Below are positions 1-20,323 of a stretch of DNA of 64,000 bases, in pieces. The notes beneath the pieces are model-generated. The model saw nothing but the letters and a program-made list of their open reading frames with translations, had not been told where the DNA came from and did not search any database. The DNA lies in assembly GCA_964291415.2 (NCBI GenBank), contig OZ219918.1, positions 672,001-736,000 of the forward strand, in the 5' to 3' direction. A program made the position numbers and the translations under genes. The stretch comes from Alphaproteobacteria bacterium (GTDB lineage Bacteria > Pseudomonadota > Alphaproteobacteria > SP197). Position 1 is the first letter of the stretch; the number at the start of each line of letters is the position of its first letter.

Positions 1-170
1 TGTCCGGCTGCAGCGACGATTCCTGGCCCCGTCTGGCCTCCGTTCCGGAGACTCCTCCCGATACCACGACCCAGGAGGAGTTTGACGGCACCGTTGACGC
101 GCTTCGCGCGGTCAGGGAAGCGGTTGCCGAAGAACTGGAATCGTGGCCCTACCCGGAAACCGGGAACTAA
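1..170 (+). CDS. Partial hypothetical lipoprotein (5' end outside window)
   Basis: Open frame from nt 3 (SGCSDDSWPRLA...YPETGN*) with lipobox-like xSGC; its TAA (168-170) overlaps the hom ATG. Confidence 0.5.
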   Translation, partial: SGCSDDSWPRLASVPETPPDTTTQEEFDGTVDALRAVREAVAEELESWPYPETGN

Positions 171-2439: not shown

Positions 2440-2444
2440 GTGCC

Positions 2445-2458
2445 GCGGTTCTCGGCGT
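2445..2458 (+). repeat. Left 14-bp direct repeat (attL-like) in the original recJ 5' end
   Basis: GCGGTTCTCGGCGT, identical to 18510-18523; GTG at 2436 reads MSAAVLGV, matching recJ ...SAVLGVTRS. Confidence 0.85.
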
Positions 2459-2742
2459 TGGAAGGAGGCGACTGCGGCAGATGCGCCGGCTGAAGGGCTC
2501 CAATTCCACCATGCGTTTATTTCAGTTGCCACTCAGCGCCTCGCGTGAAGACTTGCCCTTGCGGCTGCATAGCACCGCCCGCTACCGGCTGGCCGCTGAC
2601 GTCGTATCCGCAATCCTGTTGCTGCGTGATTTCGGGCAGGAATTGGAGGTCAATAGTCACAACGGTTGTAGAGATCTGTTGCTTCATGTTGCATGAGTGT
2701 GATGAATGACAATGGTGTGCGAAGCGCGAGGAGAGCCAAATC

Positions 2743-3216
2743 TCATACCATTTCGTTTGTCCACTCACCCCAAGGAACAAATATAGCACGATACGCCAAT
2801 TCTATAGCATAGTGTCTCAGTGCGTCTCTTCTGTCTTCAGCGTCCAACGCAACCGGCACTACAATATCAGCGTGATAGGGATTATCGTCCAACGGTGTCG
2901 GAATAGCTCTACAGCCGACATCCGCGACGTCGCCTGCCGACAATGTATACCAACCCCAGAAATTCTTTCCGGACAGGCTAGCATTTCGCACGCCCAATTC
3001 AGCCAACGTGACGGCTGGTGCCAATGTCATACGATTGACCGAGATTTCGTTAGTGTTGCTGGGTGGATCGAACTTGGATGCAGGCACCCAAGCCTTACCT
3101 TCTGCCCTTAGTCGGCGAAGGGCTTTCTTGGCGCCCGTTTGTGATCGTTCGTCCCTACCAAGCTTCTCATCGCTCCCAAGGGGCACGATTTCCCGTTCAT
3201 CAATCTGGCTCGTCAC
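2743..3216 (-). CDS. Hypothetical protein, possible small ADP-ribosyltransferase-like toxin
   Basis: 157 aa; EKLGR...KFDP...EISVNR...PLDDNPYHADI pattern; start overlaps the upstream stop. Confidence 0.5.
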   Translation of the reverse strand: MTSQIDEREIVPLGSDEKLGRDERSQTGAKKALRRLRAEGKAWVPASKFDPPSNTNEISVNRMTLAPAVTLAELGVRNASLSGKNFWGWYTLSAGDVADVGCRAIPTPLDDNPYHADIVVPVALDAEDRRDALRHYAIELAYRAIFVPWGEWTNEMV

Positions 3217-3878
3217 TACCGAATACCCACCCTCTTCAGCTCTCGAAGCCCGCCTTCCTTTAGCAAGTTGGCGGCATCAACAACCCGTAGGCGTCCTTTC
3301 GAATCGCTGGTTCGATGGAAAAGCACTCCAGAACCATCTTGCTCTATCAGGAACAAAATACCACTCTTGCTATCAGGGTTGCGAAAGTCGATAGCGATGC
3401 AACTCTGTTGCATGGGATAAATCTCCGGACGATCAACTACATAGTTTGCGACCTTCTCAAGCAAGTCCTTTGCCTTGACCAAGGCAAGGTTCGAAGGTTC
3501 GTCCATTTCCTCTTCTTGTGCGTGACACGGGCACTCTGCCAAGTCCTGTAACGATTCTTGCAACCAGCTACCATAGTCTCGCAACGGGTTGGTTAGTCCG
3601 AAATGGACAATTGATGCGACAGGCGCCGAAACGCGTGTAGCTAGCGGAAAGGAACCGGAGATGTATTTTTCGAACTGCGCTTGAGCCGAATCGTGGTAAA
3701 GTTGCTCTTCGACCGGTGGCGGGGGTATACGGGCCTCGTAGTGTCTGAAATAGTCCGCCGTGTTGGCGCTCTCGAAGGACCTACCCTGGAGGACGACCCG
3801 TGGGTCTCGGCGAATGGCTGCCGCCGCTGGTTGGCCTGCGGGCTGTGTCAGAGGAAGACGGGGCGAAGCAGTGAGCAT
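3216..3878 (-). CDS. Hypothetical protein (middle gene, putative antitoxin/partner)
   Basis: 220 aa; Pro/Ala-rich N-half; C-domain EPSNLALVKAKDLL...PEIYP...IAIDF...LFLIEQDG. Confidence 0.55.
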   Translation of the reverse strand: MLTASPRLPLTQPAGQPAAAAIRRDPRVVLQGRSFESANTADYFRHYEARIPPPPVEEQLYHDSAQAQFEKYISGSFPLATRVSAPVASIVHFGLTNPLRDYGSWLQESLQDLAECPCHAQEEEMDEPSNLALVKAKDLLEKVANYVVDRPEIYPMQQSCIAIDFRNPDSKSGILFLIEQDGSGVLFHRTSDSKGRLRVVDAANLLKEGGLRELKRVGIR

Positions 3879-3887
3879 TCTATGTTG

Positions 3888-4601
3888 TTACTCCACGGCG
3901 AGGTTCAGCTTATCCATGACAGCCTGCGAGACTAAAGCAAGGTGATTGGCCTTGTCATCAAAACTGTCAAAATGAGAGCCCGCAGCATATTCACCAGACA
4001 TCTCCAAGAACAAGTCCGCCTCCTGCAAGGCTGATTTGTCAACTGTGATGCCAATTCGCCATAGATCGTTACTGTTGATACACTCAAACTTGACAAGTGA
4101 TCTGGTGTTCGTTGCCTCAATTTGAAATGGGTCGTCAGAGTCGGGAAGCCAAGTAAGTCCTCTAACAAGTCCTTCGGCAGCGGGAACACCTCCTTCGATG
4201 GTCAGCCAGGAGGGCGTTACAAGTCTTGAATCGGCGGGTGCTCCGTCGGCAAGAAATCCACAAACAGCATCCTCAAACAGCTTGGCATGTCGTTTGGCCT
4301 GTTCGACGGCATTGGATGATCGAAGATCAAGAAAACGTGTCTTGTAACCGTCAAGTCTTGCTTCGAACACGCTGAGGCCTGAATGCAATGTCAAGGTGAC
4401 GCCAGCCGTGGCTAGTGTGTTGCCATTTTCCAAACTAATCGCATCGGAGGGAATGTTGAACTCTGATGAGAAAGCATCGTAAATGGGCTCAATAATCTGG
4501 GCAAACGACGCCATTCGACTGAATGCAGGACGAGCAAAGGTGACTTCGTAATGCGCATCAAATCGGAATACGTTGGCTTTCATTGGTTCAGACTCAGACA
4601 A
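3888..4601 (-). CDS. Hypothetical protein, possibly TIGR04255-like
   Basis: ~235 aa low-GC ORF, first gene of a tight three-gene operon; alternative ATG at 4583. Confidence 0.5.
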   Translation of the reverse strand: MSESEPMKANVFRFDAHYEVTFARPAFSRMASFAQIIEPIYDAFSSEFNIPSDAISLENGNTLATAGVTLTLHSGLSVFEARLDGYKTRFLDLRSSNAVEQAKRHAKLFEDAVCGFLADGAPADSRLVTPSWLTIEGGVPAAEGLVRGLTWLPDSDDPFQIEATNTRSLVKFECINSNDLWRIGITVDKSALQEADLFLEMSGEYAAGSHFDSFDDKANHLALVSQAVMDKLNLAVE

Positions 4602-5051
4602 GGGTAGGGGCCGGTCATTCTGATACGGAATTGGTGCACATTCAACATATGTAGGTATTCAGCGTACGTTCTGCAATCATCAAGAAGGGTCGCGCGAAGC
4701 GTGCGAGCCGAGGGCGCACTGTTCTTGACCATGGAAGGTCGATTGGAGTTGTCACGCACGGAGGGTGGCGGAAGAGCGCTTGGCTTGTCTTTGCTTGAGT
4801 GGAAGAGGGCATTCGCGACAGGCGTTCAAGAAGACGAGCATGACACGAAATCAGATTACAGGGAGAACTACAACAGATGATGCATTCAGGGACTCCGGTC
4901 GAACGGTGGGGCAAGCTGGCCGCGGGCAGTTGATGAGAGATTCAGGCATGCCTTTCTTTTCTAAGGGCGACTAGTTCCGCGGCGCACACAAGGGAAGACA
5001 GGCAGCGAATTCCGCGCTAGTTATTCTGGAGGGATGTACGTGCCATCGGTG

Positions 5052-5237
5052 TCACCAGCGCCCGGTTCAGTCAGGTGAGGGGAACGCAGTCGCAGAGCGT
5101 GCCCAGTGCCACCAGATCGAGCCACTGCATGAGATCGGGCTCGGGACATTCGTCGAACCGGCCGCGCTGGCGCAGTTGCCTGTTGATAGCAACGACGGTC
5201 ATGAATGTCACGCCAACAGCCGCGAGGTTGCCCAGGC
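5052..5237 (-). pseudogene. recJ: Inverted 186-bp internal copy of recJ
   Basis: Reverse complement matches 19105-19290 with 8 mismatches by manual alignment, including GGA>TGA. Confidence 0.92.
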
Positions 5238-5244
5238 GGCCGCG

Positions 5245-5630
5245 GGTCGCGACAAGCTTTCCTGGAGCAGACGTGTCAGCGCACTGCGCAGCGGCGCCTT
5301 GCTGAACTCGTAGAGTTCCACCAGCATTCCCTCGGAACTCCCGGCGCCCGGGCAGGATTTCGTTGCTTGGCGCGCGATACACCCTGTCGTCGAGGCCTTC
5401 CTTCTGCCGGTCCCTGCCGGAATTCCCGACTGTAGCCGGGAAGGGCCTGATTCGATCGGAGTGGTACCTCAGGCCACCGCCTCGCATCCTGTTTCGCGGC
5501 TTCGCCTCGGTAGTGCCGGAACCCTCCAGCGAACCAAGGCCTCCGGGTGCATCGGCGCTGTGTTCCTGAAATCGCCTAGGGGCCGGACGGGGCGATCCCG
5601 GCCTCGCCATTCTCGGAAGATCGCGACCTC
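5245..5630 (-). pseudogene. GntR-family regulator 5' remnant, copy 1
   Basis: Across a frameshift: GLDDRVYRA.SNEIL.../SEGMLVELYEFSKAPLRSALTRLLQESL; similar to 11841-12038. Confidence 0.6.
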
Positions 5631-6338
5631 GGCATCCCCTCCGGTGAGAAAGCGGCACTTGTCGGCAATCCCCGCGCCGGAGAGCGAGAAGCGCAAGATG
5701 GCGCTCGAGTTGTTCTTCGGGAGCACCTCCTCGTCGTCGTCATCATCGGTCGGCAGCGGCGCGAGGAGAAGGGCCGTCATCGAATGGTCGTGTTGGCCGT
5801 TGACCTGCGAGAATTGATGGTCCACAGGCACCAGGATCTGCTTGAGGTCATCGGTCTTGCCGTCCTCGTCCTCGGCGAGGATGCGGACGCGGTCGCCGTC
5901 GCCCACCTTCCAGGGCGTGTCGCGAAAGAGCCGGACTCGGCGGCGCGCCTCGGCAGTGAACGCCTTCGCGTCGTCGCAGAGGACATGCCGGCGCGACGCG
6001 CGGTGGAACACCATCGGTGACGACCAGACTTCCCGGATCACGATCTTGTCCGTCCGTTTCGACCATTCGTCGGGCGGTCCGAGATGGAAGTGCCTGCGCG
6101 GCCCCCGGCAGTGATCCTCGTCCGGGTGGCTGAGGAGCAGCGCGTCGACATAGAGCCGTCCCGCAGCGTCCCGTACGAGCTTGTCGCGCAGCTTCGCGGC
6201 AACGTCGGGCGTATCGTCATCGGGATCGTCGGCGGCAGAGCGAATGTTCATGTCGATCAATATCCTGTTGCCCCCCTCGGTCTGGACGAGCGTCATGTCG
6301 CCGTTGCCGACCGGGAAGAACGAAAGCTGGGCAGTCAT
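5630..6338 (-). pseudogene. C-terminally truncated metallo-beta-lactamase-fold (ComEC-like) hydrolase
   Basis: FFPVGNGD, LID, SHPDEDH, NNSS, LTGGDAE; runs into the duplicated sequence after EVAI, no downstream PHH motif. Confidence 0.75.
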
Positions 6339-6414
6339 GGTCTCAATCTCCGAAACGGAACGCGGGTTCGCTCGTCCACATGGGGATGCCCTGGTCGCGG
6401 TTCAACCCCTGTAA

Positions 6415-6448
6415 TTGACAAAAATCGCACCTAGCTATAGTTTGTCAA
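6415..6448. promoter_or_regulatory. Palindromic operator overlapping a promoter between divergent genes
   Basis: TTGACAAA-N18-TTTGTCAA; TTGACA-17 nt-TAGTTT toward the XRE gene. Confidence 0.6.
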
Positions 6449-6463
6449 CCGCAACGAAGGAGG

Positions 6464-7558
6464 GTGAAAATGACTGTAGGCCAACGTATTAGAGTATCAC
6501 GCCGCGCCTGCGGCCTGTCGCTCCGCGACCTGGAGGCCCGAATCGGCAACCGCGTGACGGCGCAGGCCATCAGCAAGTACGAACGCGACGAGTCGATGCC
6601 CAGCTCGGGCGTGCTCATCGCGCTGGCCGACGCCCTCGAGGTCCCGATCGACTACCTTGCGAGCGACAGCGAGATTCGCCTCGAAGCCGTCGATTTCCGG
6701 AAGAAGCGGCTCACCAGTCGCCGAGAGGAGTCGCAGATCGAAGCCAACGTCCTGCACCTCCTGGAACGGTATCTCACGGTCGAGGAGATCCTGGGGCTCC
6801 CCACCGTCGCGTGGGACATGCCGCGTGACGCCCCCTGGCCCGTGCTGCGCGACCCGGTCGAAGCCGAGCAGGCCGCGCTCGGCATGCGTGCCCACTGGGG
6901 TCTCGGTCTCGATCCGATCCCGAACCTGGTCGATCTGCTGGAGGAACGCGGCATCAAGGTTCTCTCGATGAGCCTCCCCAACATCGATGGGCTCACGGCA
7001 CGGGTGCGCCGCGAAGACCGGAGCCTGGCGTCGGTCGTCGTCGTGAACCGGGACGATTGGGGCGAACGCCAGCGCTTCACGCTCGCGCATGAGCTCGGCC
7101 ACATGGCCCTCGACCCGGCGGCGAAAGTCGACGAGGAGAAAGCAGCGCATCGTTTCGCCGGCGCGTTCCTGATGCCCGCCGAGACGCTGCGGGCGGAGAT
7201 CGGCAAGCACCGCAAGTCCATCGGCTGGGGCGAGCTCTTCGAGCTCAAGCGCATCTTCGGCGTGAGCGTCCAGGCGCTCACCTACCGCTGCAAGGACCTC
7301 GGGATCCTCGGGGCGCCCGCGTTTCGGACGCTGTTCAACGAATTCACCCGCCGCGGCTGGCGGAGCCCGCCATACAGGGAGCCCTGGGCCATGCCCGGCG
7401 AGCGGTCTCTGCGCTTCGAGCGCCTGTGCTTTCGGGCCCTGTCCGAGGAAGCGATCTCGGAAGCGAAGGCTGCCGAACTGCTTGGCCATTCCGTCCACGA
7501 GCTCAACCGGCGCATGGACGAACCGCCGAGCGTGGACGCGGAACTTGCCGGAGTGTGA
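6464..7558 (+). CDS. XRE HTH / ImmA-IrrE metallopeptidase fusion
   Basis: N-terminal HTH (LSLRDLEARIG...AQAISKYE); RQRFTLAHELGH; AHRFAGAFLMP. Confidence 0.92.
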   Translation: MKMTVGQRIRVSRRACGLSLRDLEARIGNRVTAQAISKYERDESMPSSGVLIALADALEVPIDYLASDSEIRLEAVDFRKKRLTSRREESQIEANVLHLLERYLTVEEILGLPTVAWDMPRDAPWPVLRDPVEAEQAALGMRAHWGLGLDPIPNLVDLLEERGIKVLSMSLPNIDGLTARVRREDRSLASVVVVNRDDWGERQRFTLAHELGHMALDPAAKVDEEKAAHRFAGAFLMPAETLRAEIGKHRKSIGWGELFELKRIFGVSVQALTYRCKDLGILGAPAFRTLFNEFTRRGWRSPPYREPWAMPGERSLRFERLCFRALSEEAISEAKAAELLGHSVHELNRRMDEPPSVDAELAGV

Positions 7559-8784
7559 GTGCCGTGAAGGTTCTGGTGTCTGACACCTCCGTCCTGATTG
7601 ACCTCGATCGCGGGAGCCTTGTCGAACTGGTCTTCCGGCTTCCGTTCGAATTCACCGTTCCCGTCATGCACTGCTACGCAACCTACGCCATGGCGCGCGC
7701 GGCGGGCCTCGAACCGGACGATGCTCGCATCATTGCGACGTCCGCCCAATTCGTGGACGACAACGTCGCCCGAAGTCATGTCGAGTTCGGCGACGGGTCG
7801 CGTCTCGACCAGGAAGCTACCGCCCACCATCCTATCGACCTGTCGAATCGCGACGACCGCGACCAGCGCAGGGTCTGGGTACCGTTCCATTTCATTCCGG
7901 GCAATGAAGGCGACGACTACACCGAGCGCCTCAAGTGCCCCATGGACAGCCCGATCGTCCGCGAGTTGCCGGACCATCACCTGACATATGCGGATCGCGG
8001 CTTCGGGGTGCACCTGCTCGGCATCACGGCGCATGTCTATGCGGATACGTTCTCCCACTACGGCTTCTCGGGAGTCAGCTCGCGCGGGAACAAGGTCGAC
8101 AATTCCAGCTTTCGCTTTCACGAGGAGGTCGAAGAGGCGGACGGCGGAGTCGCACCATTGTCACCGGAGATGAGGGGTTACGTAACCGAGAAGGCCGATC
8201 GGCTCTTCAGGGATCGTGGCGACCACGGCGGGTTGCTCACCAATGTCAAGAGCTGGCTCGCCGAAGAGCTTTCGGGCGCTCTCGGGCATGGTTCGGTGGC
8301 AACCCTGCCGGACAGACCCTATCTGGTGTGGAGCTTCGACTACGAGCGGCCCGATGCGGTTGCCGGTGGGCGCAGCATCCGCAACAACCCGGTCACATAT
8401 CTGGCAGGCTGCGGCGCCTTGCACGAGATGTTCAGGCGGTTCGCCGCGATGAGGGCGGATGCGCGCGACGGCGGTGACGGCCGCGACTTCGAAGCCATCG
8501 CGGACCAGGTTCGTGAAGTGCTGCTCGTGCAGGCCGACAAGGCCGGGCGCATCGCGGCCTGGCAGGATGCGGCCCGGTCCGGAGAGATATTCGGGCCCGG
8601 CGACGAGGACATCCCGGAATATGACGGGCATGTCTGGAACGAACAGTGGCAGGGGCTGGACGGTGCTGAGGACTACCAGGCGGCCCAAGACTTACCCGTC
8701 TGGCAATTCTATCGGGCGGCCGCCGTGCATCGCACCTATGTGCTACGTGATCTTCTTCCGAAACACGGGCTCGTCGTGGACTAG
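7555..8784 (+). CDS. PIN N-terminal stub fused in frame to a DUF6765-like protein
   Basis: GTG overlaps the XRE stop; VLVSDTSVLIDL...FTVP then MHCYATYAMARAAG...SAQFVDD, WVPFHF, HVYADTFSH, LGHG. Confidence 0.65.
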   Translation: MSAVKVLVSDTSVLIDLDRGSLVELVFRLPFEFTVPVMHCYATYAMARAAGLEPDDARIIATSAQFVDDNVARSHVEFGDGSRLDQEATAHHPIDLSNRDDRDQRRVWVPFHFIPGNEGDDYTERLKCPMDSPIVRELPDHHLTYADRGFGVHLLGITAHVYADTFSHYGFSGVSSRGNKVDNSSFRFHEEVEEADGGVAPLSPEMRGYVTEKADRLFRDRGDHGGLLTNVKSWLAEELSGALGHGSVATLPDRPYLVWSFDYERPDAVAGGRSIRNNPVTYLAGCGALHEMFRRFAAMRADARDGGDGRDFEAIADQVREVLLVQADKAGRIAAWQDAARSGEIFGPGDEDIPEYDGHVWNEQWQGLDGAEDYQAAQDLPVWQFYRAAAVHRTYVLRDLLPKHGLVVD

Positions 8785-9029
8785 TGGCTCAGGAAGGAGC
8801 GCCCGCTGTGTCGCCAAAGGGTCAATTTTTGGTGTCGCGTGAAAATATGTGCACGGAGCGATGGGCGGTGAATTCCGAGGGTAGGCCGCATTGGATGATC
8901 GCCGGCACCACCGGCTCGGAGGCCGGGTGATGGAGCGAGGCCAGAGGAGTAGGCGCTAATGCACAAGAGTGGCGTAGGTTATGAATGTGGGCGACGATGG
9001 TCTCGCCGGGTTCTGGTGCAAATTGGCCC

Positions 9030-9248
9030 TCATGTGGATGCGAGCCTGTCGGCCTCCGCCGTCGTGGTGGCCCGGCGGCTCGCCGCCCATTTATCCAGAT
9101 CGGACCGACGGTAGCGTACCCGGTTCCCGAAGCGGTGGAAGGCAGGCCCCGCGCCGCTCACGCGGTAGCCGTCCAACGTGCGGGGCGAGAGGCCGAGATA
9201 GTTCGCCGCGCGCCTGGTGTCGAAGAAGCCGCCGTCATCGTTGCCCAT
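9030..9248 (-). CDS. Excisionase/AlpA-like HTH protein
   Basis: DTRRAANYLGLSPRTL...GAGPAFHRFGNRVRYRRSDLDKW. Confidence 0.85.
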   Translation of the reverse strand: MGNDDGGFFDTRRAANYLGLSPRTLDGYRVSGAGPAFHRFGNRVRYRRSDLDKWAASRRATTTAEADRLAST

Positions 9249-9664
9249 ATTGTCCCCCTTCGATTGCCCGAAGTCCCAGACCTTCCGCGGCGCCGATCCG
9301 ATGCCGGCCGCCGCGCACCGGCGCAGCGACCGTAGGAGGGGCCGCCGGGTTTTGCAAAGCGCACGGTAAGGAGAAAACCGGCGACCTCCCGCCGTTCGGA
9401 CCCATGCGCGCGCTCCCGCGCGACGGCGTTGACACCGCGCGACCGCATGTCGTCGTCAGCCCGCCAGCCGCGTCCGGGGAAGCCCCGGCCCAAGTCAGTG
9501 TGGCCGCCGTAACTCCGGAGTTTGGGGAGTCCTGCAACGCCGGGGCATACATGTTCACCGCGGCGCGCGGTTTCGGAGCCCGATCGCTCTCTGCATGCTC
9601 ACGGAGCCAGAATAGGTTCAGAGGGAAAGTAGAAAAAACTGCTATATTACGGTCACGTACGGAG

Positions 9665-9945
9665 TTACTGAGCGCGTTCTACGATGTGCGTATCCACAGA
9701 AATGGTCCCGCGATGCCGAGCCATGAGCACCTCATAAATCGGCCGGGCGAGCGACGCCGTGGAACGCGAACAGATCCGAGAGATCGTCGACGCTGAGATC
9801 GAGCAACGCGGCAGCCCGGCGGACGGAGACGAGCCCGTCCCCGACAGCAAGACCGACAATCTCCATGAACGTCCTCGAAAACAGCGCCGGCGGCACATTC
9901 TCGACATCATCGCGACCGTTGTGGCGCAATGCGTCGTCCGGAACC
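9665..9945 (-). pseudogene. Remnant of a second ImmA-PIN pair
   Basis: FSRTFMEIVGLAVGDGLVSVRRAAALLDL (ImmA-like C-terminus), then MARHRGTISVDT* (PIN-like start). Confidence 0.5.
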
Positions 9946-10289
9946 GCCTCCGGGTCGCCACATGCTCCACACCGTATCGGTGCCGGATCCAGCTTCACGT
10001 CCGATACCGCCATGGCCACCGTCTACAATCCCAACTCCCTCCCGCACCCGTCCCAATCCCTTGACGACGATTCTAGTCCGTCCCTCTCTGCGGCAGTTCC
10101 CGTGCCAGCCTCCGATGTCCTCACCGGTTCCAAATCCCGGTCGGCCGCCTTCCCGTCCTCCGGTCCCGTCACCCTGTCCTCCCCCAACGGCGTCGATGGT
10201 GGAAGAAAAAGCCGTTATATCGCCGAGAGTTATGTGAGAGACGACGCTGCTCGTCGAGGAGCGTCGTCGTGTGCGTACTCTTCCTTGTT

Positions 10290-11835
10290 AGACATCATGG
10301 CTTGACCTGCCCTGGCCTCGAGGATCGTGGGTTATTCTCGAGGTCAGGAACCCTTTGAGCACAGAGCCACATCGAGGAGGGCAGGTCATGATCGATTATA
10401 GCGCATACGTTGGTCTGGACGTCCACAAGGAGACGATTGCGGTAGCGGTTGCGGTGCCGGGTCGAGAGGAGCCGGTGTACCGGGGCGAGATCGCCAATAA
10501 GCGTTCGTCCCTGCGGCGTCTGGTGGGGCGGCTGAGCCCCGATGGCGAGGTGTTGAGCTTTTGCTACGAGGCCGGTCCCTGCGGCTATGGGGTGTACCGG
10601 GAGCTTGTGGCGACGGGGCACGACTGCATGGTGGTGGCGCCGAGCCTGGTTCCGCGCAAGGCGGGTGACCGGGTGAAGACGGACCGCCGTGACGCTTTGA
10701 ACCTGGCGCGTCTTCATCGTGCCGGGGAGTTGCGTCGGGTGTGGGTTCCCGACGCCGACCAGGAGGCGATGCGGGACCTGACGCGAGCGCGCGAGGACAT
10801 GAAGGCAATCGAGCTCAAGGCCCGGCAGCGCCTGGGGGCGTTCCTGCTGCGCCACGAGCGGATCTACGCCGGGCGCAGCCGCTGGACGCAGGCGCACTTC
10901 CGCTGGCTTGAGCAGCAGTCCTTCGAGCATCCGATGCAGCAGGTGGTGTTCCAGGAGTACGTGGACGCGGTGCTGGACGCCCAGCGCCGGGTGGCGGGCC
11001 TGGAAGATCAGATCCACCAGGCCGTGTCGTCGTGGTCGCTGCGTCCTTTGGTGGAGGCCCTGATGAGCCTGCGCGGGGTCAACGTTCTCACCGCGGTCAC
11101 GGTGCTGGCCGAACTCGGCGACCTGACGCGCTTCGACAGCCCCCGTCAACTGATGAGCCATCTGGGCCTGGTGCCCAGCGAACATTCGTCGGGTCTGAGA
11201 CGGCGTCAGGGTGGGATCACCAAGACCGGCAACGGTCATGTGCGCCGCGTGCTCGTCGAGGCCGCCTGGAGCTATCGCTTCGCGGCCCGCAAGACGGCCC
11301 ATCTCAGGCGCAAGGCAGCCTCCGCCCCGCCCCGCGTCCAGGCCCTCGCCTGGGCCGCCCAGAAACGCCTGTGCGGGCGCTACCGGCGGCTCTCCCATGC
11401 CGGCAAGGCGCACTGCCAGGTGATCACCGCCGTGGCCCGCGAGCTGGCCGGCTTCATATGGGCCATCGCCTGCGAGATGGCCGGCCGTCCCCACAACAGT
11501 CGCGCCCTGGCCTGAGATCCGCAGGGCCTGAAACAACCAACAACTCTGCTTGGCAGGGCAACCAACAAAGGACGATCAGGCATGACGGGTGCGGAACGCG
11601 GGCGGCCGGTGAGGAGAACCCTCGTTCGGGCTATGCGAGGCGAACCGGAACGTTCGTCAACCCGCGTTGTTAGACAGAGGCAGCTCCGCGACGAAGTGAA
11701 GTCAAGTGGTAACCAACCCACGGATATCAGAGTGATCCACCGTCGCAACAAGCCGCCCGCGGTCCGCTCCCGTCATGCCAAAAGGGGGTGGGGACAAAAA
11801 CAGACCGAGCCGGTATAGACAGGTCAATCCATATC
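10290..11835 (+). mobile_element. IS110-family element, IS1111-like
   Basis: Sub-terminal inverted repeats ATGG(C/A)TTGACCTG at 10297-10309 and 11820-11832; ~300 nt non-coding 3' end. Confidence 0.85.
10388..11515 (+). CDS. IS110-family transposase
   Basis: YVGLDVHK, CYEAGPCG, KTDRRDA, GLVPSEHSSG, ITKTGN, AVARELAGFIW. Confidence 0.96.
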   Translation: MIDYSAYVGLDVHKETIAVAVAVPGREEPVYRGEIANKRSSLRRLVGRLSPDGEVLSFCYEAGPCGYGVYRELVATGHDCMVVAPSLVPRKAGDRVKTDRRDALNLARLHRAGELRRVWVPDADQEAMRDLTRAREDMKAIELKARQRLGAFLLRHERIYAGRSRWTQAHFRWLEQQSFEHPMQQVVFQEYVDAVLDAQRRVAGLEDQIHQAVSSWSLRPLVEALMSLRGVNVLTAVTVLAELGDLTRFDSPRQLMSHLGLVPSEHSSGLRRRQGGITKTGNGHVRRVLVEAAWSYRFAARKTAHLRRKAASAPPRVQALAWAAQKRLCGRYRRLSHAGKAHCQVITAVARELAGFIWAIACEMAGRPHNSRALA

Positions 11836-11840
11836 AGCCC

Positions 11841-12038
11841 CGTAGCGTTCCACCAGCATTCCCTCGGAACTCCCGGCACCCGGAGGCAAGCGGCACAGCA
11901 GGATCTTGTTCCTTGGCGCGCGATACACCCTGTCGTTGAGGCTTTCCTTCTGCCGGTCCCTTCCGGATTCCCGACGGCAGCCGGGAAGGGCCGGACGGAG
12001 CGGTCCCGGCCTCGCCATTCCCGGAAGATTGCGACCTC
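11841..12038 (-). pseudogene. GntR-family regulator 5' remnant, copy 2, ending at the IS110 end
   Basis: ESLNDRVYRAPRNKILLCRLPPGAGSSEGMLVERYG, then IS terminus; direct repeat of 5309-5630. Confidence 0.65.
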
Positions 12039-12152
12039 TCGCGGCGGTGGCCCGCGCTGGGGCCGTTGACGAAACAACACCTTTGTGCGCGCCGGCAAGA
12101 GCGATATGATGACCGGGGCAGGTACGCGGCACGCGTACAGCGAAGAGATGAC

Positions 12153-15137
12153 ATGGGGATTGCCAAGCTAGCTTCGAAGTTCGTCTCCTTCGACATGATC
12201 ATGTTCGGCCTTCACAAGCACCTGATCATCACGAGAGCGAGATTTCCCGAGTTCGCGCGAAAGATGGCCGAACGCGACCTCGTGGCCCAGGTCATGATCC
12301 ACCAGGAAAGGTCCGGATACTGGTTCGAATTCAGGGGCGGGAAGGTCAGGCTCTCGAAAGGGGTCTACGAGAGGCCCGATGTGACCCTGGGATTCCGCGA
12401 CCGGCGCACGGCCAGAGACCTCCTGATCCCGCCCTTCGACTGGTCCGAACAGATCCATGCCCAGAAAATGTTCCGGCTGACCATGGACGGCAGGCCGGAC
12501 GACACCGCCTGGTTCCAGCGCCTTCTCATACGTTCGACGACCATCGGCGAAAGCTACGGCCAGAATCGTCCCGGCGGCGAGGTCCGCTACGTCAACAACA
12601 ACAATGGCGGTCCGGTTTTTGTCGATGTGAAGGATGGCAGGATCGTTCGCATGACGCCCATTGTGCTGCGCGACGACGACGCGAAATCCTGGACCATCAC
12701 GGCCAGGGGCAGACAGTTCTCGCCACCCCGCCGGGCCGCCATTGCCTCCCATGCCCTGTGCATGAAGTCGCGGGTCTATTCCGAAGACCGCATCATGTAT
12801 CCGATGAAACGGGTCGACTTCGATCCGCATGGCGAGCGCAACTCCGGCAACCGTGGCGTCTCCGGACACGAGCGCATCTCGTGGGACGAGGCGCTCGCCA
12901 TCGTTGCCGGGGAAATCGTCCGTTGCCGTACGCAATCCGGTCCGGGCTCGATCGGCACGCTCATATCCGCGCACCACCTGTGGGGCAATGTGGGCTACCA
13001 CCTCAGTGCCGCGCACCGGTTCTGGAACCTGATCGGCCACACCTACATCGAGCACAATCCCGAAAGCTGGGAAGGCTGGTTCTGGGGTGCGATGCATCAC
13101 TGGGGGCATTCGACACGGGCCGGGGCCGGAGATCCCTATGGCCTGGTCGAGGACTGCCTGCAGAATGCCGACATGATCGTCTTCTGGTCCTCGGACCCGG
13201 AGGCGACCGGCGGTTGCTACGCAGGCACCGAAGGATCGATCCGGCGTCAATGGGCCAAGGAACTGGGGATCGAGTTCGTTCACATCGACCCCTACTTCAA
13301 TCACACGGCGCAGGTTCTCGGCGGCAAATGGATCGCTCCGCGCCCCGGCACCAGCAATGCACTGGCGCTCGCCATCGCCTTCGTCTGGATCGACGAGGGT
13401 CTCTATGACACGGACTATGTCGAACGCGTCACCACGGGCTTCGACGAATGGAAGGCCCATATCATGGGCGAGGACGGCACGGTGCCCAAGACGCCGGAGT
13501 GGGCCGAGGTGGAATGCGGGGTCGAGGCGCACGTGATCCGTGCGCTCGCCCGCAAATGGGGCAAGTCCAGGACCTATCTCGGGGCCGGCGGCTGGGGCAA
13601 CTCCGTGGGCAGCGCCAATCGCCAGTCGACCGGCGTGCAGTGGGCGCGTTCGATGGTTTGCCTGGCGGCGATGCAGGGCATGGGCAAGCCGGGCTCGAAC
13701 ATGGGCAACCTGCAGTTCGGCACACCAATCGACTACACGTTCTATTTTCCCGGCTACGTGGAAGGCGGCATTTCGGGCGATCTGGAATACACCGCGTCCG
13801 CGGTCAGCAACTACCAGCGCATGCCGCACCTGATGACGGTGAACAGCGTCAAGCAGAGGATCCCGCGCCTCAAGTTGGCCGATGCCATTCTCGACGGACG
13901 GTGCGAAGGCAACGTCATGGCCGTCGACAGCGTGACCGGCCAGTTCGAGAAGCACGTCTATCCGGCCGAAGGCTATGCGCCGGTGGAAATGCTCTATCGC
14001 TACGGCAGCTCCTATACCGCGACGATCGGGGATTCGAACCGCCTGATCGAGGCGTTTCGCTCGCCGAAGCTGAAGTTCATCGTCAACCAGTCGATCTGGA
14101 AGAACAACGAGACGGTCTTTGCCGACGTGATACTGCCCGCCTGCACCAACTACGAACGCTGGGACATCGGAGAATGGGCGAATCCCGGGGCGCTGGTCTT
14201 TCACGCCCAGTCGCAGCTGAACCACCGGGTCGTGGCGATGCAGCACAAGTGCATCGAGCCGGTGGGCGAATCCAGATCGGACTACGAGATCTTCTTTGCA
14301 CTCTCCAAGAAACTCGGGCTGTCGGACTACTATTCCGAGGGCATGACCGAATACGACTGGGTGAAGCGGGTCTATGAATCCTCCGACATGCCCAAGGTCA
14401 TGCCGTGGAGGAAGTTCCTCAAGCGGGGCTATTACGTCGTGCCGCCGGATTCCGAGGACACCCGCGTGCCGACGGCCTACAGCTGGTTCGCGAACGAGGA
14501 AAAGAAGAATGTGCCCGACGCAACACCCGTGGCCAGCGAATACAACACGGAGTGGCTGAAGGGCCTGCAGACGCAAAGCGGCAGGTTCGAGTTCGTGCCG
14601 GAGACGCTCAGACGCAATCCGCCCGAGGTCGACCGGCCCGCCGTCAACACCTACCAGCGCGGCTGGGAAGGTTACTGGGACGAGGAGCGCCGGCGAAAGT
14701 ATCCGCTGCAGATGATTGCTCCTCACCCTCGCTACAGCTTCCACACGATGGGGGACGGAACCGATTCGTTCCTGTCCGAGATCGAGGATCACCGGGTCTG
14801 GGTGGATGGCTGGCCCTACACCAAGATGCGAATCCACCCGGAAGACGCCGAGGCGCGGGCCATCAGGGACCGGACGCTCGTGCGCGTCGCCAACGACCGC
14901 GGAGGCCTGGTCTGCGCGGCGCAGGTTACTTCGAGGATCCGCAAGGGTACGGTCCACGTCTACGAATCCTCGTCCCTCTACAGGTCCGCCGGCGAGCCCG
15001 GCAAGTCGGTGGATCTCGGCGGCGGTGCGAACCAGGTCTCGTCAGGACGCATGCAGGTCAGGAACTCGCATGCCGGCGCCGGCAACTCGATCCTCGTGGA
15101 GGTCGAGAACTGGGATGGAAAGGCAGGCTTTCAATGA
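12153..15137 (+). CDS. Molybdopterin oxidoreductase, pyrogallol transhydroxylase large subunit-like, with N-terminal SCP2-like extension
   Basis: GGPVFVDVKDGRIVR, YPMKRVDFDP, AHHLWGNVGY, NPESWEGWFWGAMHHWG, PHPRYSFHT; start approximate. Confidence 0.85.
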   Translation: MGIAKLASKFVSFDMIMFGLHKHLIITRARFPEFARKMAERDLVAQVMIHQERSGYWFEFRGGKVRLSKGVYERPDVTLGFRDRRTARDLLIPPFDWSEQIHAQKMFRLTMDGRPDDTAWFQRLLIRSTTIGESYGQNRPGGEVRYVNNNNGGPVFVDVKDGRIVRMTPIVLRDDDAKSWTITARGRQFSPPRRAAIASHALCMKSRVYSEDRIMYPMKRVDFDPHGERNSGNRGVSGHERISWDEALAIVAGEIVRCRTQSGPGSIGTLISAHHLWGNVGYHLSAAHRFWNLIGHTYIEHNPESWEGWFWGAMHHWGHSTRAGAGDPYGLVEDCLQNADMIVFWSSDPEATGGCYAGTEGSIRRQWAKELGIEFVHIDPYFNHTAQVLGGKWIAPRPGTSNALALAIAFVWIDEGLYDTDYVERVTTGFDEWKAHIMGEDGTVPKTPEWAEVECGVEAHVIRALARKWGKSRTYLGAGGWGNSVGSANRQSTGVQWARSMVCLAAMQGMGKPGSNMGNLQFGTPIDYTFYFPGYVEGGISGDLEYTASAVSNYQRMPHLMTVNSVKQRIPRLKLADAILDGRCEGNVMAVDSVTGQFEKHVYPAEGYAPVEMLYRYGSSYTATIGDSNRLIEAFRSPKLKFIVNQSIWKNNETVFADVILPACTNYERWDIGEWANPGALVFHAQSQLNHRVVAMQHKCIEPVGESRSDYEIFFALSKKLGLSDYYSEGMTEYDWVKRVYESSDMPKVMPWRKFLKRGYYVVPPDSEDTRVPTAYSWFANEEKKNVPDATPVASEYNTEWLKGLQTQSGRFEFVPETLRRNPPEVDRPAVNTYQRGWEGYWDEERRRKYPLQMIAPHPRYSFHTMGDGTDSFLSEIEDHRVWVDGWPYTKMRIHPEDAEARAIRDRTLVRVANDRGGLVCAAQVTSRIRKGTVHVYESSSLYRSAGEPGKSVDLGGGANQVSSGRMQVRNSHAGAGNSILVEVENWDGKAGFQ

Positions 15138-15976
15138 CCAAGTGGAACATGATCCTCGACGTCGATCGCTGCAACAACTGCCGGAACTGCTTCCTCTCGG
15201 TTCTCGATGAATACGCCGAGAACGAACACGCAGGATACAGTGCCCCGACTCCGCGCAAGGGCGCGCACCTGATGGAAATCGATACCCATGAAAGGGGCAG
15301 CGGCCAGGACCTGGACGTGACCTACGTCCCGGTTACCTGCAACCACTGCGATGATGCGCCCTGCATGAAGGCCGCCGAAAAGGGTGCCGTCTACAAGAGA
15401 CGGGACGGGATCGTGATCATCGACCCGGTCAAGTCCAAGGGGCAGAAGCAGATCGCACAAGCCTGTCCCTTCGGCCGTGTCTACTGGAACGAAGAGCTGC
15501 AGATCCCGCAGATCTGGACCTTTGATGCGCACCTCTTGGACCAGGGCTGGGAGCGACCCCGCATGGCAGATGCCTGTCCGACGCTGGCCATCGAGACCGT
15601 CAAGTGCTCCGATGCCGAAATGGAATCCCGTGCACGACGCGAGAGCCTGCGCACGCTGCAACCGGAACTGGGCACGAAACCCAGGATCTACTACCGAAAC
15701 CTGGACCGGATCTTCGAGAACTTCGTCTCAGGATCCGTGCTGGTGAAATCCGGTGACACGCTGGATATCGTCGAAGGCGCCGAGGTCGTCCTCAGGCAGG
15801 ATGAAGACAAGACCATCGAAACCAGGACCGATTTCTTCGGCGACTTCACGTTCACGGGCCTGCCGTGCGAGGCCACCGAGATCGAGATCGAGGTGCGGTC
15901 GGGCGGCAAGACCGTATCCCGGCGCATGACCGTCGCACGATCCGGCCGGGTGGATCCCTTCATCCTCGAGGCCTGA
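15134..15976 (+). CDS. Fe-S subunit, transhydroxylase small subunit-like
   Basis: ATGA overlap; CNNCRNC, CNHCDDAPC, ACPFG, ACPT, GTKPRIYY; C-terminal beta domain (TDFFGDFTF). Confidence 0.88.
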   Translation: MTKWNMILDVDRCNNCRNCFLSVLDEYAENEHAGYSAPTPRKGAHLMEIDTHERGSGQDLDVTYVPVTCNHCDDAPCMKAAEKGAVYKRRDGIVIIDPVKSKGQKQIAQACPFGRVYWNEELQIPQIWTFDAHLLDQGWERPRMADACPTLAIETVKCSDAEMESRARRESLRTLQPELGTKPRIYYRNLDRIFENFVSGSVLVKSGDTLDIVEGAEVVLRQDEDKTIETRTDFFGDFTFTGLPCEATEIEIEVRSGGKTVSRRMTVARSGRVDPFILEA

Positions 15977-16179
15977 GCCGGCACATCCTTCCCGGCGGAC
16001 ATATGTGCGGATGGAACCGGCACGCGAAGGGAAGGACAAATGGAACCGTTCTCGCCCGGGTCGCGTTCGAACGGTGCATGCCGTTGTCGTCCCGCCCTGA
16101 GGACGCCGTGGAACGGCATCGCGAACCATCGCCCGGCGTGGTGGCGGCGTCAGGTTCGGTGCTCCTTGGGGAACTCGGT

Positions 16180-16566
16180 GTCGCTCCGCTCAGGGGCATT
16201 TCCGGACATTGTCTTGGCAAACTGTATGGCCAATTCGGAGATACTGAAGGACCGACGATCACGAAGCTCGAGGAATTGTTTCGCGAAGCAACGACAGGCT
16301 TTCCGTTTAGTCTGGTTGCATTCCTTAGCACCGACGATCCCAAAGTTCCTGCGGGGCCCGACGACCGGAAGTTAGTCACCCTGGCTGATTTCTTCGCGTA
16401 TATGGATGAAGATGTGGAGCTGTGGAACAAGAGATATTCGTGGGAACAATCCGCCGGCAGGCAGTGGCAGCACTATCTCGATGACCTGAGCGCGTTTTTC
16501 GCGTTTCTCGACAAGACAGAAATTTTGGCAACACAAATGGCGCGAGAGCAAGGCATAGTTCGATAG
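16180..16566 (+). CDS. Hypothetical protein or 3' gene fragment
   Basis: Lower-GC open frame ending at 16566 with protein-like composition; start unclear. Confidence 0.25.
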   Translation, partial: VAPLRGISGHCLGKLYGQFGDTEGPTITKLEELFREATTGFPFSLVAFLSTDDPKVPAGPDDRKLVTLADFFAYMDEDVELWNKRYSWEQSAGRQWQHYLDDLSAFFAFLDKTEILATQMAREQGIVR

Positions 16567-17004
16567 CGGTCTGGTTCCTCATTTTCCTTCAGTTTCAGGT
16601 CGACGTGCAGATAGACGTTCGTGGTCTCGATGAATTCATGACCGAATCACAACGCGCTTGATGCTCCTCCCTTATGGCATCCCAAGTCTCTTTCGTCATT
16701 GCTGAAAGTACTCCTGGCGGTGATACAACCTCCTTCATGACGGCATCATGCTCGTTGTCGGCTACAGAGTTTGCGACATCTGCTGCGAAGATGAGCAAAA
16801 TCCTTGGCAGTACCTTCGAATGCTTCCTCTATGGTCCCAACCACCTTGGTCATGGCGACTATCGGGGCATCATTGCCCCCACGCAAATGCATTTCGCAAG
16901 GATGTAACCAACGCATGAGGGGCTGTCTCCGCCCAGGTCGTTGCAAACTCCAAAGTCCTCACAGCCTTGTCATCGACTGCAAGACCGTGGTGCAGTCTCG
17001 TCGC

Positions 17005-17128
17005 TAGTGTCTTGATCGAGAAATTTGCCAGAGTATTTTCATCGGCAATGTTGGGGGAGTGACCGGTGGGCGGAGCAGCGGTGGCGATTACCTTGTCGGA
17101 AGCGGAGCGGCGTGAGCTGGAGGGACTG
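17005..17128 (+). mobile_element. IS630-like left-end remnant
   Basis: TAGTGTCTT... end followed by AVAITLSEAERRELEGL, resembling IS630 transposase N-termini. Confidence 0.45.
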
Positions 17129-17600
17129 GGAGAGGAAGCATCAACTGGCCGGACACCAGTTCAATGGCCTTTTCGTCCTCGCCTTCGGATGCGAGTTTCA
17201 TGGCGGCAATGATCAAGTCCTCGTGCTGGATCATGGAGTTGATGACCGGCTTCAACGCTTTGGGCGCCGATTCGACAATCTCGCGATAGCGATCCTGAAA
17301 TTCTACGCTGGCCGCCACCATATAGGCGGTCGCCTCGGTCCAGCTCATGTGTTCGACGCGCCGAATGAAGGCCCGGGCATCGTTCCGGCTGGCGTCGCTC
17401 TCGACGATATCGCCGCCATGCTCGAAGACGACCTGGCGCAGGCGCGCCTTGTTCTCGGTTTCGAGTTGCAGCAGTGAGCCGATGAGGTGTTTCTGAACCG
17501 GGGTGTGGAACAGGTGCAGCAGGGCGCAATAGAAGGCCTCGCCGTACACCTCGCCCTGGTACATTTCGGCCACTTCCCGTATCTGCTGCTCCGATATCAT
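17088..17600 (-). CDS. Ferritin-like hypothetical protein
   Basis: SD GAGGGAGG; YQGEVYGEAFY, QLETEN, MIQHE helical pattern; 3' end overlaps the IS630 remnant. Confidence 0.55.
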   Translation of the reverse strand: MISEQQIREVAEMYQGEVYGEAFYCALLHLFHTPVQKHLIGSLLQLETENKARLRQVVFEHGGDIVESDASRNDARAFIRRVEHMSWTEATAYMVAASVEFQDRYREIVESAPKALKPVINSMIQHEDLIIAAMKLASEGEDEKAIELVSGQLMLPLPVPPAHAAPLPTR

Positions 17601-17761
17601 CCGGCGCCTCCCTCGTTGACACGTCAGGCAAGCATGCCAGCTTTTCGTCGCCATACAAACCTCGGACCGCCGTTCAGCGGGTGCTCCAGGCGATCATCCC
17701 GGGCGCAGCTGTTGCGGGAAACCAAACTTGTCTGCGCCGACAAGGGACTGTCAGCAAATTG

Positions 17762-17890
17762 CTGAGGCTGTTGAAAAAGTCGGAGCCGACAGATTTTGCG
17801 CAGCTATCGTTCCGGTGAATCTTACGGATTGAGCGGGTGAGCGGGCGCAGGCTTTCAGCGGCGATCAGGATGCGAGCTGCGCGACGATCA
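17762..17890 (-). mobile_element. IS5/IS1182-like right-end remnant
   Basis: Minus strand ...GACTTTTTCAACAGCCTC (DFFNSL), typical of these IS ends. Confidence 0.35.
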
Positions 17891-17899
17891 GGATGAGAT

Positions 17900-18250
17900 T
17901 CCCGGCGGCAGCGGCGAGAGGATGATTCCCGTGGCCGGCGGCGGTTGCAAGCGTGTTCTTGGTTTGATTGTCGCGGCGCGACAGACAGCGCGACATGGGT
18001 GTTGCTGGTGTGGTTGGAGAGAACCGGCCCGCGGAGATGACCTCCGCGGGCCATCAGTGTCGTGATGGTTCAGCTTCTGGTGTTTTTCTCGGTGGCATAG
18101 CTTGCCGGCCTGCCGGGTCCTCGCTTGCCCTTGTCGAGGGCGGCGCAGCGGCGATAGCTCTCGACATTCATCTCGAGGATGGCTGCGTGGTGGACGAGGC
18201 GGTCGACGGCAGCCACCGCGGTTGTTTCGTCCGGGAACACCCAGTGTACC
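17900..18250 (-). pseudogene. istB: IS21 istB 3' remnant and element end
   Basis: VFPDETTAVAAVDRLVHHAAILEMNVESYRR. Confidence 0.8.
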
Positions 18251-18259
18251 GTCAGACGA

Positions 18260-18390
18260 GAGGCGAAATACTTGCACCCTGTCGGGTGGACGCGGACGCC
18301 GAAGCCCTTGAGGCCGGCATCGCGGATATCTATGGTGGCCATGCGTGGCCGCAGAGCCGCGATACGCGCTTGAGTTCATTGTGTCGTGGC
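18260..18390 (-). pseudogene. Tyrosine integrase N-terminal (Arm-binding) remnant
   Basis: TQARIAALRPR...DIRDAGLKGFGVRVHPTGCKYF, next to the right junction. Confidence 0.7.
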
Positions 18391-18476
18391 CCTGGATTCC
18401 CTCCCTGCCTTGAGTTGCAGACGCAGAATGATTCGGCACGGAATCATCCCGCAACTGCAGTCGAGAGAGGAAACAA

Positions 18477-20264: not shown

Positions 20265-20323
20265 CGCCGGTGTGCCACTTGAATTTGTCGAGACGGGCCG
20301 TTATCTGAACGTCTGCCCTGGAC

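Follow-up and report, generated by a model that had tools for sequence, protein, structure and literature searches.

What is encoded by a compact, AT-rich operon of three unannotated genes in an alphaproteobacterial genome, and could it be a toxin system of a new kind? The operon lies at the left end of a 64,000-nucleotide stretch of DNA, referred to here as the window (Alphaproteobacteria bacterium, SP197; assembly GCA_964291415.2, contig OZ219918.1, positions 672,001–736,000). An initial inspection of the letters and translations (the sequence-only reading) had proposed a tripartite toxin or anti-phage system composed of a sensor or chaperone, an antitoxin and a toxin that uses nicotinamide adenine dinucleotide (NAD). 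From the computational analysis described here, the triad is most likely a three-part module, serving as a toxin–antitoxin or defence system, whose toxin would be of a new kind within the ADP-ribosyltransferase (ART) fold. The three genes are denoted g1, g2 and g3 in operon order.

3888..4583, minus strand: g1, 231 amino acids from an ATG; the open reading frame (ORF) extends to a TTG at 4601 (237 amino acids)
3216..3878, minus strand: g2, 220 amino acids, ATG start; putative antitoxin
2743..3216, minus strand: g3, 157 amino acids, GTG start; putative toxin with an ADP-ribosyltransferase-like fold

The described layout of three co-oriented, tightly packed ORFs was confirmed (237 residues from the TTG, 220 and 157); g1 and g2 are separated by 9 bases, and g2 and g3 share a single base. 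Most of the g1 homologues listed are 231 residues in length (a few are 224–253), with a query coverage of 97%; the start of g1 is therefore most likely to be the ATG at 4583 and not the TTG at 4601. Each of the three proteins has 65–84 homologue clusters, which shows that the genes are real and are not chance ORFs. These clusters are all unnamed or hypothetical, and a single one has a recorded Pfam domain. Scans of the three proteins against Pfam, NCBIfam, PADLOC and PHROGs returned no significant family; a match of g2 to the PADLOC model PDC-M32A is discussed below, and marginal rows for HpaP, Ribosomal_L25p and Csm2 were judged to be due to chance.

The triad is conserved as a unit. When one genome per species was searched for g3 patterns, 32 loci were found through g3 alone, and in 25 of them g1, g2 and g3 are adjacent and in the same order (tblastn); the homologues thus co-occur as a triad. 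The pair of g2 and g3 is present in 30 of the 32 loci as judged by tblastn and in all 32 as judged by hidden Markov models (HMMs). In one metagenome-assembled genome (MAG) the source names of the g1, g2 and g3 homologues carry consecutive locus tags. The titles of the 32 loci include Paracoccaceae, Arenicellales, Thermodesulfobacteriota, Poribacteria, Poriferihabitaceae, Binatia, Dehalococcoidia, Spirochaetia, Longimicrobiales and an acidobacterium. The related loci are mostly from sponge-associated MAGs of many phyla, and the public runs that contain the stretch are mostly labelled sponge metagenome. Within the class the distribution is sporadic: the genome itself has a single copy of the triad, a g3 match is found in three of 22 other genomes of the same genus (two of these matches are fragmentary), and a member of the g3 superfamily is found in nine of 401 sampled genomes of the class.

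The triad is also mobile. DNA similarity between the window and other triad loci extends from the start of g1 to the stop of g3 only, ending where the ORFs end, and the GC content of the triad (0.41–0.58) is below that of its flanks (0.45–0.69) in 20 of 21 loci. In the window these values are 0.517 for the triad and 0.667 for the flanks; measured in 500-nucleotide windows, the GC content is 0.49–0.55 over approximately 2500–5000 compared with 0.65–0.68 ahead of that region, in agreement with the earlier remark that the operon is more AT-rich than its host. In one triad locus (L001; L numbers denote individual loci) a leftover piece of g3, corresponding to its final ~110 bases and 79% identical, is present at 6186–6295 upstream of g1, which hints at tandem duplication or at recombination between triad copies.

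The argument for a toxin centres on g3, in which a pattern associated with small ART-fold proteins had been noted by eye. The AlphaFold2 model of g3 (from a 39-sequence alignment) has a predicted local distance difference test score (pLDDT) of 89.2 and a predicted template modelling score (pTM) of 0.83. Its strands alternate with helices, and the predicted model contains the split β-sheet core of the ART fold. A structural search with VIA-align, which is independent of Foldseek, was made against 48,161 PDB representatives and the best 50 rows were classed by their entry titles; on this basis, approximately 38 of the 50 are ART-superfamily or otherwise NAD-utilizing toxins. The top row is Tse2 (Z = 6.6, root-mean-square deviation of 3.3 over 110 residues), and other neighbours are KptA (Z = 6.5), Tpt1 (Z = 5.6), AvrPphF ORF2 (Z = 5.5), TreX (Z = 5.2) and DarT (Z = 4.9 and 4.7). 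Lower rows comprise SidE/SdeA, PltA, Scabin, diphtheria toxin, CopC, pertussis toxin and RES/MbcT, together with Arr, LT, TreTu, MTX, SPN, pierisin, CARDS, RhsP2, TccC3 and ParT. The prediction of an ART-like fold for g3 is therefore supported. With this fold predicted and the triad found to co-occur, the sequence-only reading has withstood both of the challenges to it that could be made by computation.

The conserved residues of g3 suggest where a cleft of the ART type might lie. A profile search of 1.84 billion representatives retrieved 581 relatives (clusters at 50% identity) with E ≤ 1e-3 and 208 with E ≤ 1e-10; the members are stand-alone proteins of 80–184 residues among the 150 of the 581 matches listed. 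In a set of 88 distant relatives, which contains no meaningful Pfam family, three residues do not vary at all (S59, G88 and H115), and conservation reaches at least 90% for each of G20, R21, D/N61, R62, F86, W89 and N112. In the AlphaFold2 model R21 lies on a predicted strand formed by residues 18–23, S59 on strand 57–62 and H115 on strand 115–119. The pattern noted at the outset, R...F-x-P...SVxR...NPxHAxI, is present in g3 as R21, F49/P51, S59-V60-x-R62 and N112-P-x-H115-A-x-I118, and corresponds exactly to invariant or near-invariant columns of the family. The conserved set as a whole (R21, S59/N61/R62, W89, N112 and H115-x-D117) points to a candidate active site formed by R21, S59 and H115. 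The third position of this triad is the invariant H115, followed by a variable Asp or Glu at 117, and is not a Glu. The R-S-H order and its spacing of 38 and 56 residues presumably echo the R7-S61-E112 of cholera toxin, and we take the His-x-Asp/Glu motif to stand in place of the Glu-x-Glu of the R-S-E toxins.

If g3 is a toxin, then g2 is the candidate for its antitoxin, as had been suggested from the sequence, and this assignment fits the predicted binding of the two proteins, the layout of their genes and the order in which the genes decay. The N-terminal half of g2 (approximately residues 1–100) is variable and of low complexity, and the C-terminal domain (approximately residues 105–220) is strongly conserved. 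The homologues of g2 are mostly about 240 residues in length, and the g2 of the window is without about 20 residues of the variable half. Modelling of the complex predicts that g2 and g3 bind to one another. In three runs the interaction prediction score from aligned errors (ipSAE) was 0.87, 0.86 and 0.87 compared with 0.00 for the best control; 58 of 80 solved complexes attain the mark used for this score, as do two of 110 mismatched pairs. Contact agreement between the runs was at least 32% and the partner pLDDT was at least 64. The confident interface joins residues 112–125 and 152–198 of g2 to residues 24–28, 31, 35, 41–53, 82, 84 and 130–143 of g3. Sequence-profile searches of the PDB were empty or marginal for g3, the g3 superfamily, g2 and g1 and gave no solved complex resembling the g2–g3 pair by sequence, and the high score is therefore unlikely to be the memory of a known structure. 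A search of the ESM Atlas with g2 and g1 returned only unnamed clusters.

The gene layout is that of a type II toxin–antitoxin pair, with g2 upstream of g3 and a 1-base overlap between them, and the pair is maintained in the 30 (tblastn) or 32 (HMM) of 32 loci counted above. The length of g2 varies with its company: in each of the 21 loci with a g1 it has at least 206 residues, and the A-like, g2-related genes of the TIGR04255 operons described below encode 169–223, whereas 128–178 residues is the usual length for g2-like genes that lack a first gene. As a trend, the N-terminal extension of g2 goes along with the presence of a first gene.

The decay of the operon is ordered. Of 27 loci in the close clade, 20 are fully intact and seven are decayed. 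Among the seven, g3 is broken in every case, the ORF for the C-terminal domain of g2 is intact in five and g1 is intact in one; in none of the 27 has g3 stayed whole where g1 or g2 is broken. Loss of g3 first, with g2 persisting, is the order expected of a toxin and its antitoxin.

The genomic neighbourhood was a further test suggested for the operon, and here the expectation of a conserved or defence-rich context was disappointed. Around the 32 loci, the flanking ORFs (80 on the upstream side and 83 on the downstream side) are mostly housekeeping genes with heterogeneous Pfam tallies and no conserved arrangement. Restriction–modification, toxin–antitoxin and integrase families are few, each occurring in one or two of the 80 or 83 ORFs among the 25 most frequent Pfam families per side. 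The idea of a fixed defence island or of a dedicated integrase was dropped in view of these heterogeneous tallies. Two distant g2/g3 pairs have toxin–antitoxin-like genes beside them, as read by eye from the translations: a PIN/VapC-like gene with an antitoxin and a RelB/DinJ-like ORF in L031 (6636–7613), and a HigB/HigA-like pair in L030 (6116–6731).

Short, near-identical contigs from a sponge metatranscriptome library cover 2837–3006, 3157–3419 (the g2/g3 junction) and 3818–4030 (the g1/g2 junction) of the window. One RNA run (X2) leaves parts of the operon uncovered and the cover in DNA runs is patchy; no inference was drawn from either. A promoter consensus was not found for the operon, and terminator-like sites are no more common in it than in shuffled sequences.

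Taken together, these results lead us to favour, with moderate confidence, the reading of the operon as a mobile tripartite module of the toxin–antitoxin type, in which g3 would be an NAD-using protein of the ART fold, g2 would clamp g3 and g1 would modulate the pair. A number of results weigh against this reading. The structural scores of g3 are modest throughout (all Z ≤ 6.6), and Foldseek searches of g3 against the PDB (where KptA and AvrPphF ORF2 are among the weak rows) and against BFVD gave nothing at E ≤ 0.001. None of the three proteins, nor any of the 88 relatives of g3, matches an ART family by sequence in Pfam, NCBIfam, PADLOC or PHROGs, and hhalign of the g3 superfamily against three KptA sequences, a thin alignment, gave a probability of 0.1%. 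The g3 relatives have not kept the catalytic Glu by which known ART clades are marked, D117 itself varies in the wider family, and R21-S59-H115 is a putative site. The predicted interface with g2 is on the helical face of g3 and includes none of the proposed catalytic residues. g2 shows no recognizable DNA-binding domain, with no HTH, RHH, AbrB or other Pfam match, and in this is unlike most type II antitoxins. The decay counts are small, and some of the frameshifts may be errors of MAG assembly. The defence-island context is weak. Lastly, the RNA-library depth on the operon (~3) equals that on adjacent housekeeping DNA and may reflect carry-over of DNA.

Some of these points could be accommodated if g3 were a pseudo-ART toxin, an ART scaffold that acts by binding or by other chemistry and makes no use of NAD, with g2 still being its antitoxin. 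The replacement of the canonical Glu by a conserved R-S-H triad, the lack of a sequence link from g3 to any ART family and the identity of the best structural neighbour, Tse2, the mechanism of which is debated, all speak for such a protein. We nevertheless think it unlikely. As far as placement can be judged from the model, the conserved Arg of strand 1 and Ser of strand 2 occupy the sites used by R-S-E ARTs for NAD binding, and many members of the g3 family have a His-x-Asp/Glu motif at the position on strand 5. Moreover, variant triads are found in many ART clades, such as H-Y-D in Arr and R-H-R-R in Tpt1.

The structural neighbours of g3 raise a second alternative, namely that g3 and g2 are a secreted interbacterial effector and its immunity protein, comparable to Tse2–Tsi2 or to the Tre toxins of Rhs proteins. 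Tse2–Tsi2, TreX–TriX, TreTu, RhsP2 and Tne2–Tni2 are indeed among the top neighbours. The organization of the proteins and genes speaks against such a pair, however. The g3 family members have no trafficking domains and stand alone at 80–184 residues (among the 150 superfamily matches listed), and the partner gene is upstream of the toxin gene and overlaps it, whereas immunity genes usually follow the toxin gene. The 163 flanking ORFs were tallied for the 25 commonest Pfam families on each side, and none of these belongs to a secretion system or to Rhs proteins; the genome itself has one copy only. A secreted effector of this kind therefore seems to us very unlikely.

Continuing to favour a three-part toxin–antitoxin-type module over these alternatives, we turn to how far the module extends beyond the close clade. 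The match of g2 to PDC-M32A is the first indication of a wider family: 36 of 42 g2 homologues match this model at E ≤ 0.1 (best E = 2.4e-6), and the g2 of the window does so with E = 0.0027. The g3 of the window has no match to the companion model PDC-M32B, and only three of its 88 relatives match, weakly, but comparison of the g3 superfamily with PDC-M32B by hhalign gives 93.9% (E = 1.5e-7) with the S-V and P-x-H-x-x-I motifs in register. Comparison of g2 with three PDC-M32A sequences gives 2% in a thin alignment, although the PADLOC model matches the g2 homologues. In view of the weak scores of the window proteins and the family-level matches, we regard the triad as a distant relative of PDC-M32 and not as a member. 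Three loci that are true PDC-M32 cases were examined; their A genes encode 375, 135 and 162 residues, and each overlaps by four bases a B gene of ~125 residues. In one of these loci (L033, 38–1516) the pair is directly beside a 492-residue ORF that reads as the S subunit (HsdS) of a type I restriction–modification system, which fits the way in which the PDC candidates were discovered. The PDC systems, of which PDC-M32 is one, are 145 candidates whose defence role is a prediction from their embedding in BREX, DISARM and type I restriction–modification loci (bioRxiv 10.1101/2024.01.29.577857). PDC-M32 is named in a paper on a Sinorhizobium prophage, in which PADLOC detected it (PMC12429752).

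A second branch emerged from g1, for which a resemblance to TIGR04255-type proteins had been suggested. By sequence this does not hold: against the TIGR04255 NCBIfam model (cut-off 30 bits) the g1 of the window has no match at E ≤ 1 and 0 of 49 homologues match, and hhalign against ten TIGR04255 members gives 0.3%. By sequence, g1 is thus not a member of this family. By context, the resemblance does hold. Eleven loci fetched with the TIGR04255 model alone were examined, and in eight of them (L055–L061 and L063) the TIGR04255 gene is followed directly by an A-like gene (169–223 residues) and then by a small B-like gene (133–176 residues), from which it follows that TIGR04255 occupies the position of g1 in sister triads. 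The first gene of these operons encodes ~250–300 residues and overlaps of four bases are frequent (for example, L057, 495–2334). The B-like genes of the TIGR04255 operons align with the g3 superfamily (hhalign 98.3%, E = 1.6e-14), which makes them homologues of g3 as judged by profile comparison; the A-like genes align with g2 (82.6%, E = 9.6e-6) and with PDC-M32A (92.3%, E = 5.6e-7) and are probably homologues of g2. A literature search found no paper mentioning TIGR04255.

First genes of yet another type are seen at L066 (2567–3277) and L068 (2598–3335), where ORFs of 236 and 245 residues, 47% identical to one another, lie tightly upstream of g2-like/g3-like pairs; against TIGR04255 or g1 they give at most 0.6% in hhalign. 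Likewise, the ORFs upstream of three distant loci (L032, L018 and L027) give at most 0.5% against g1, and the N-terminal 250 residues of PDC-M32A give 0.1% against TIGR04255 or g1. No Pfam family was found in any of ten proteins from these groups (PDC-M32A and PDC-M32B, A-like, B-like and the first gene of L066). By these comparisons, the core formed by g2 and g3 is part of a broad family that is absent from Pfam, other members being PDC-M32 and the pairs of genes found downstream of TIGR04255.

The predicted fold of g1 is two-lobed and made up of β-sheet and helix, similar to TBP or to a helix-grip fold, and its structural-neighbour lists contain rows for McsB, RepDE, TBP and AdoMetDC and no row for SecB. 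It is also the most conserved of the three proteins, with a mean column identity of 68% compared with 57% and 56%. These features would suit a third alternative, a non-toxic NAD-dependent complex for the modification or repair of nucleic acid or protein, resembling KptA/Tpt1, in which the TBP-like saddle of g1 could bind a nucleic acid substrate and g2 would be a regulatory subunit. Such a complex is difficult to reconcile with the sporadic distribution of the operon (nine of 401 genomes of the class, three of 22 congeners), with a composition foreign to the host and with decay that repeatedly spares g2. Some of the loci adjoin VapBC, HigBA or restriction–modification genes, the core is related to a candidate that was found embedded in defence systems, and the hhalign comparison with KptA gave 0.1%. 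We consider a complex of this type to be improbable, and return to the toxin–antitoxin-type module in what follows.

In the genome studied, the triad is the leftmost cargo of a larger insertion. In three genomes of the same genus glpX is directly followed by recJ, whereas in the window the two are separated by ~16 kb. The features concerned are the following.

2459..18509, unstranded: insertion of ~16 kb between glpX and recJ, with the triad as its leftmost cargo at the low-GC left end
2459..5052, unstranded: low-GC islet with the triad, defined by composition; left edge of the larger insertion
2445..2458, plus strand: left direct repeat GCGGTTCTCGGCGT, exact, 14 bp, bounding the insertion
18510..18523, plus strand: right direct repeat GCGGTTCTCGGCGT, exact, 14 bp, followed by recJ
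5053..5243, minus strand: recJ fragment, an inverted 191-bp duplicate of an internal recJ segment (blastn) that adjoins the upstream region of the triad

The 14-bp repeat matches twice in the window, where no match is expected by chance, and is present in a single copy at the empty site of a congener. No meaningful repeats were found within 2400–5300 and no tRNA within 1–20000 of the window. The cargo is a mosaic of the triad, an XRE-Peptidase_M78 gene, a DUF6765 gene, an IS110-family transposase and a molybdopterin oxidoreductase with its Fe–S subunit. The other match of the window to the recJ region of the congeners is at 18510–20398, with a recJ-matching ORF at 18477–20264, and the inverted duplicate at 5053..5243 points to a past rearrangement or to recJ having been the target of an insertion. 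The statement that the operon is intact while most of its neighbours are decayed could not be upheld: hom and glpX are full-length ORFs, recJ of the congeners is matched by an ORF, several genes of the surrounding insertion have full-length Pfam matches and the recJ fragment is the sole clear remnant. Between this fragment and the XRE-Peptidase_M78 gene is a 289-residue ORF (5469–6338, minus strand) with no Pfam match. The XRE-HTH and Peptidase_M78 (ImmA/IrrE-like) ORF at 6464–7558 (plus strand) overlaps the start of the DUF6765 ORF at 7426–8784 (plus strand; E = 9e-86), and the two may be another regulatory or conflict pair within the insertion.

A mechanism for the module can be proposed on this basis. 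g3 would be a small cytoplasmic ART-fold toxin with a likely NAD cleft lined by R21 of strand 1, by S59, N61 and R62 of strand 2 and by H115-x-D117, where strand 5 begins; it would ADP-ribosylate a cellular or phage target, or degrade NAD+, and so stop growth. The C-terminal domain of g2 is predicted to clamp the helical face of g3 and would thereby neutralize it, with the disordered N-terminal half of g2 probably being the regulated or labile part. g1, an accessory present only in the clade of the window, may be a sensor, regulator or stabilizer that acts through g2, probably through its N-terminal extension.

A more ambitious interpretation, which we put forward tentatively, is that all of these operons form a large superfamily of tripartite conflict systems composed of a sensor, an A-type antitoxin that would clamp the toxin with its conserved C-terminal domain, and a B-type toxin from a new R-S-H clade of NAD-using ART enzymes, PDC-M32 being the two-gene form. 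The first component would then be a fast-evolving protein of ~230–300 residues (TIGR04255, g1 and others), and it is conceivable, if doubtful, that the N-terminal extension of the A protein couples it to this sensor. Equally speculative is the suggestion that the branch represented in the window spreads among sponge symbionts of many phyla as a phage defence by abortive infection.

The interest of the family lies in several directions. With each of the earlier ART-fold toxins (DarT, ParT, MbcT and CmdT) a new chemistry came to light, acting on DNA, RNA, protein or NAD. The superfamily represented by g3, which numbers at least 581 clusters (50% identity), has no Pfam family and an unusual R-S-H signature. 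The window triad, PDC-M32 and TIGR04255 are joined as one system, of which each part can be tested as toxin, clamp-type antitoxin or accessory, and TIGR04255, an orphan family of NCBIfam, gains a functional context from the three-gene operons. The occurrence of the close clade in sponge bacteria of many phyla, with a composition foreign to its hosts, may mark gene exchange, and possibly phage pressure, in sponge microbiomes.

CmdTAC, a three-part anti-phage system, had been named as the analogue of the operon. The general architecture of this analogy stands: both have three genes, an ART-fold toxin and a partly disordered antitoxin, and share the idea of a third protein that controls the antitoxin. 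The specific parts differ. In passages of a published description, CmdT carries an H-Y-[EDQ] triad, CmdC is a SecB homologue that forms tetramers and CmdA is helical at the N-terminal end and unstructured towards the C terminus (PMC11618068). The triad of g3 is R-S-H (R21, S59 and H115) and not the H-Y-[EDQ] of the diphtheria-toxin clade, g1 is TBP-like and the disordered part of g2 is N-terminal; the order of accessory, antitoxin and toxin genes is a further difference. No SecB-like chaperone was found in the triad from the fold lists of g1, Pfam or PADLOC. PADLOC gave no CmdTAC hit, its output for the triad being the PDC-M32 matches and the weak Csm2 row, to which the relatives of g3 and g2 add three marginal rows of single members.

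Of the effector pairs, Tse2–Tsi2 (PDB entry 5ako) is the closest in structure and has no sequence relation to g3 and g2. Tse2 is a secreted effector of the type VI secretion system of Pseudomonas aeruginosa, with Tsi2 as its immunity protein, whereas the g3 family is stand-alone with its partner gene upstream. In a passage of one review Tse2 is termed an NAD-dependent ART with an active site that is occluded by Tsi2 (PMC6099711). The toxin–antitoxin systems DarTG, ParST and Xre–RES/MbcTA belong to other families with other catalytic motifs, and none has a third gene like g1. Their antitoxins are also of other kinds, DarG being a macrodomain hydrolase and ParS and MbcA being Xre-type proteins; g2 has no macrodomain or Xre-type Pfam match.

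The nearest relatives are PDC-M32 and the TIGR04255-led operons. PDC-M32 shares with the triad a larger A gene that overlaps a small B gene, and the C-terminal domain of g2 matches the C-terminal part of the PDC-M32A model, but PDC-M32 has no gene like g1 and the N-terminal regions of its A proteins are unrelated. The TIGR04255-led operons have the same three-gene architecture and differ in that g1 has no sequence relation to TIGR04255. As a kind, ART-fold toxin–antitoxin and defence systems are already known. What is new in the family found in the window is that it has no Pfam entry and combines a different conserved triad with a putative clamp-type partner and a variable first component.

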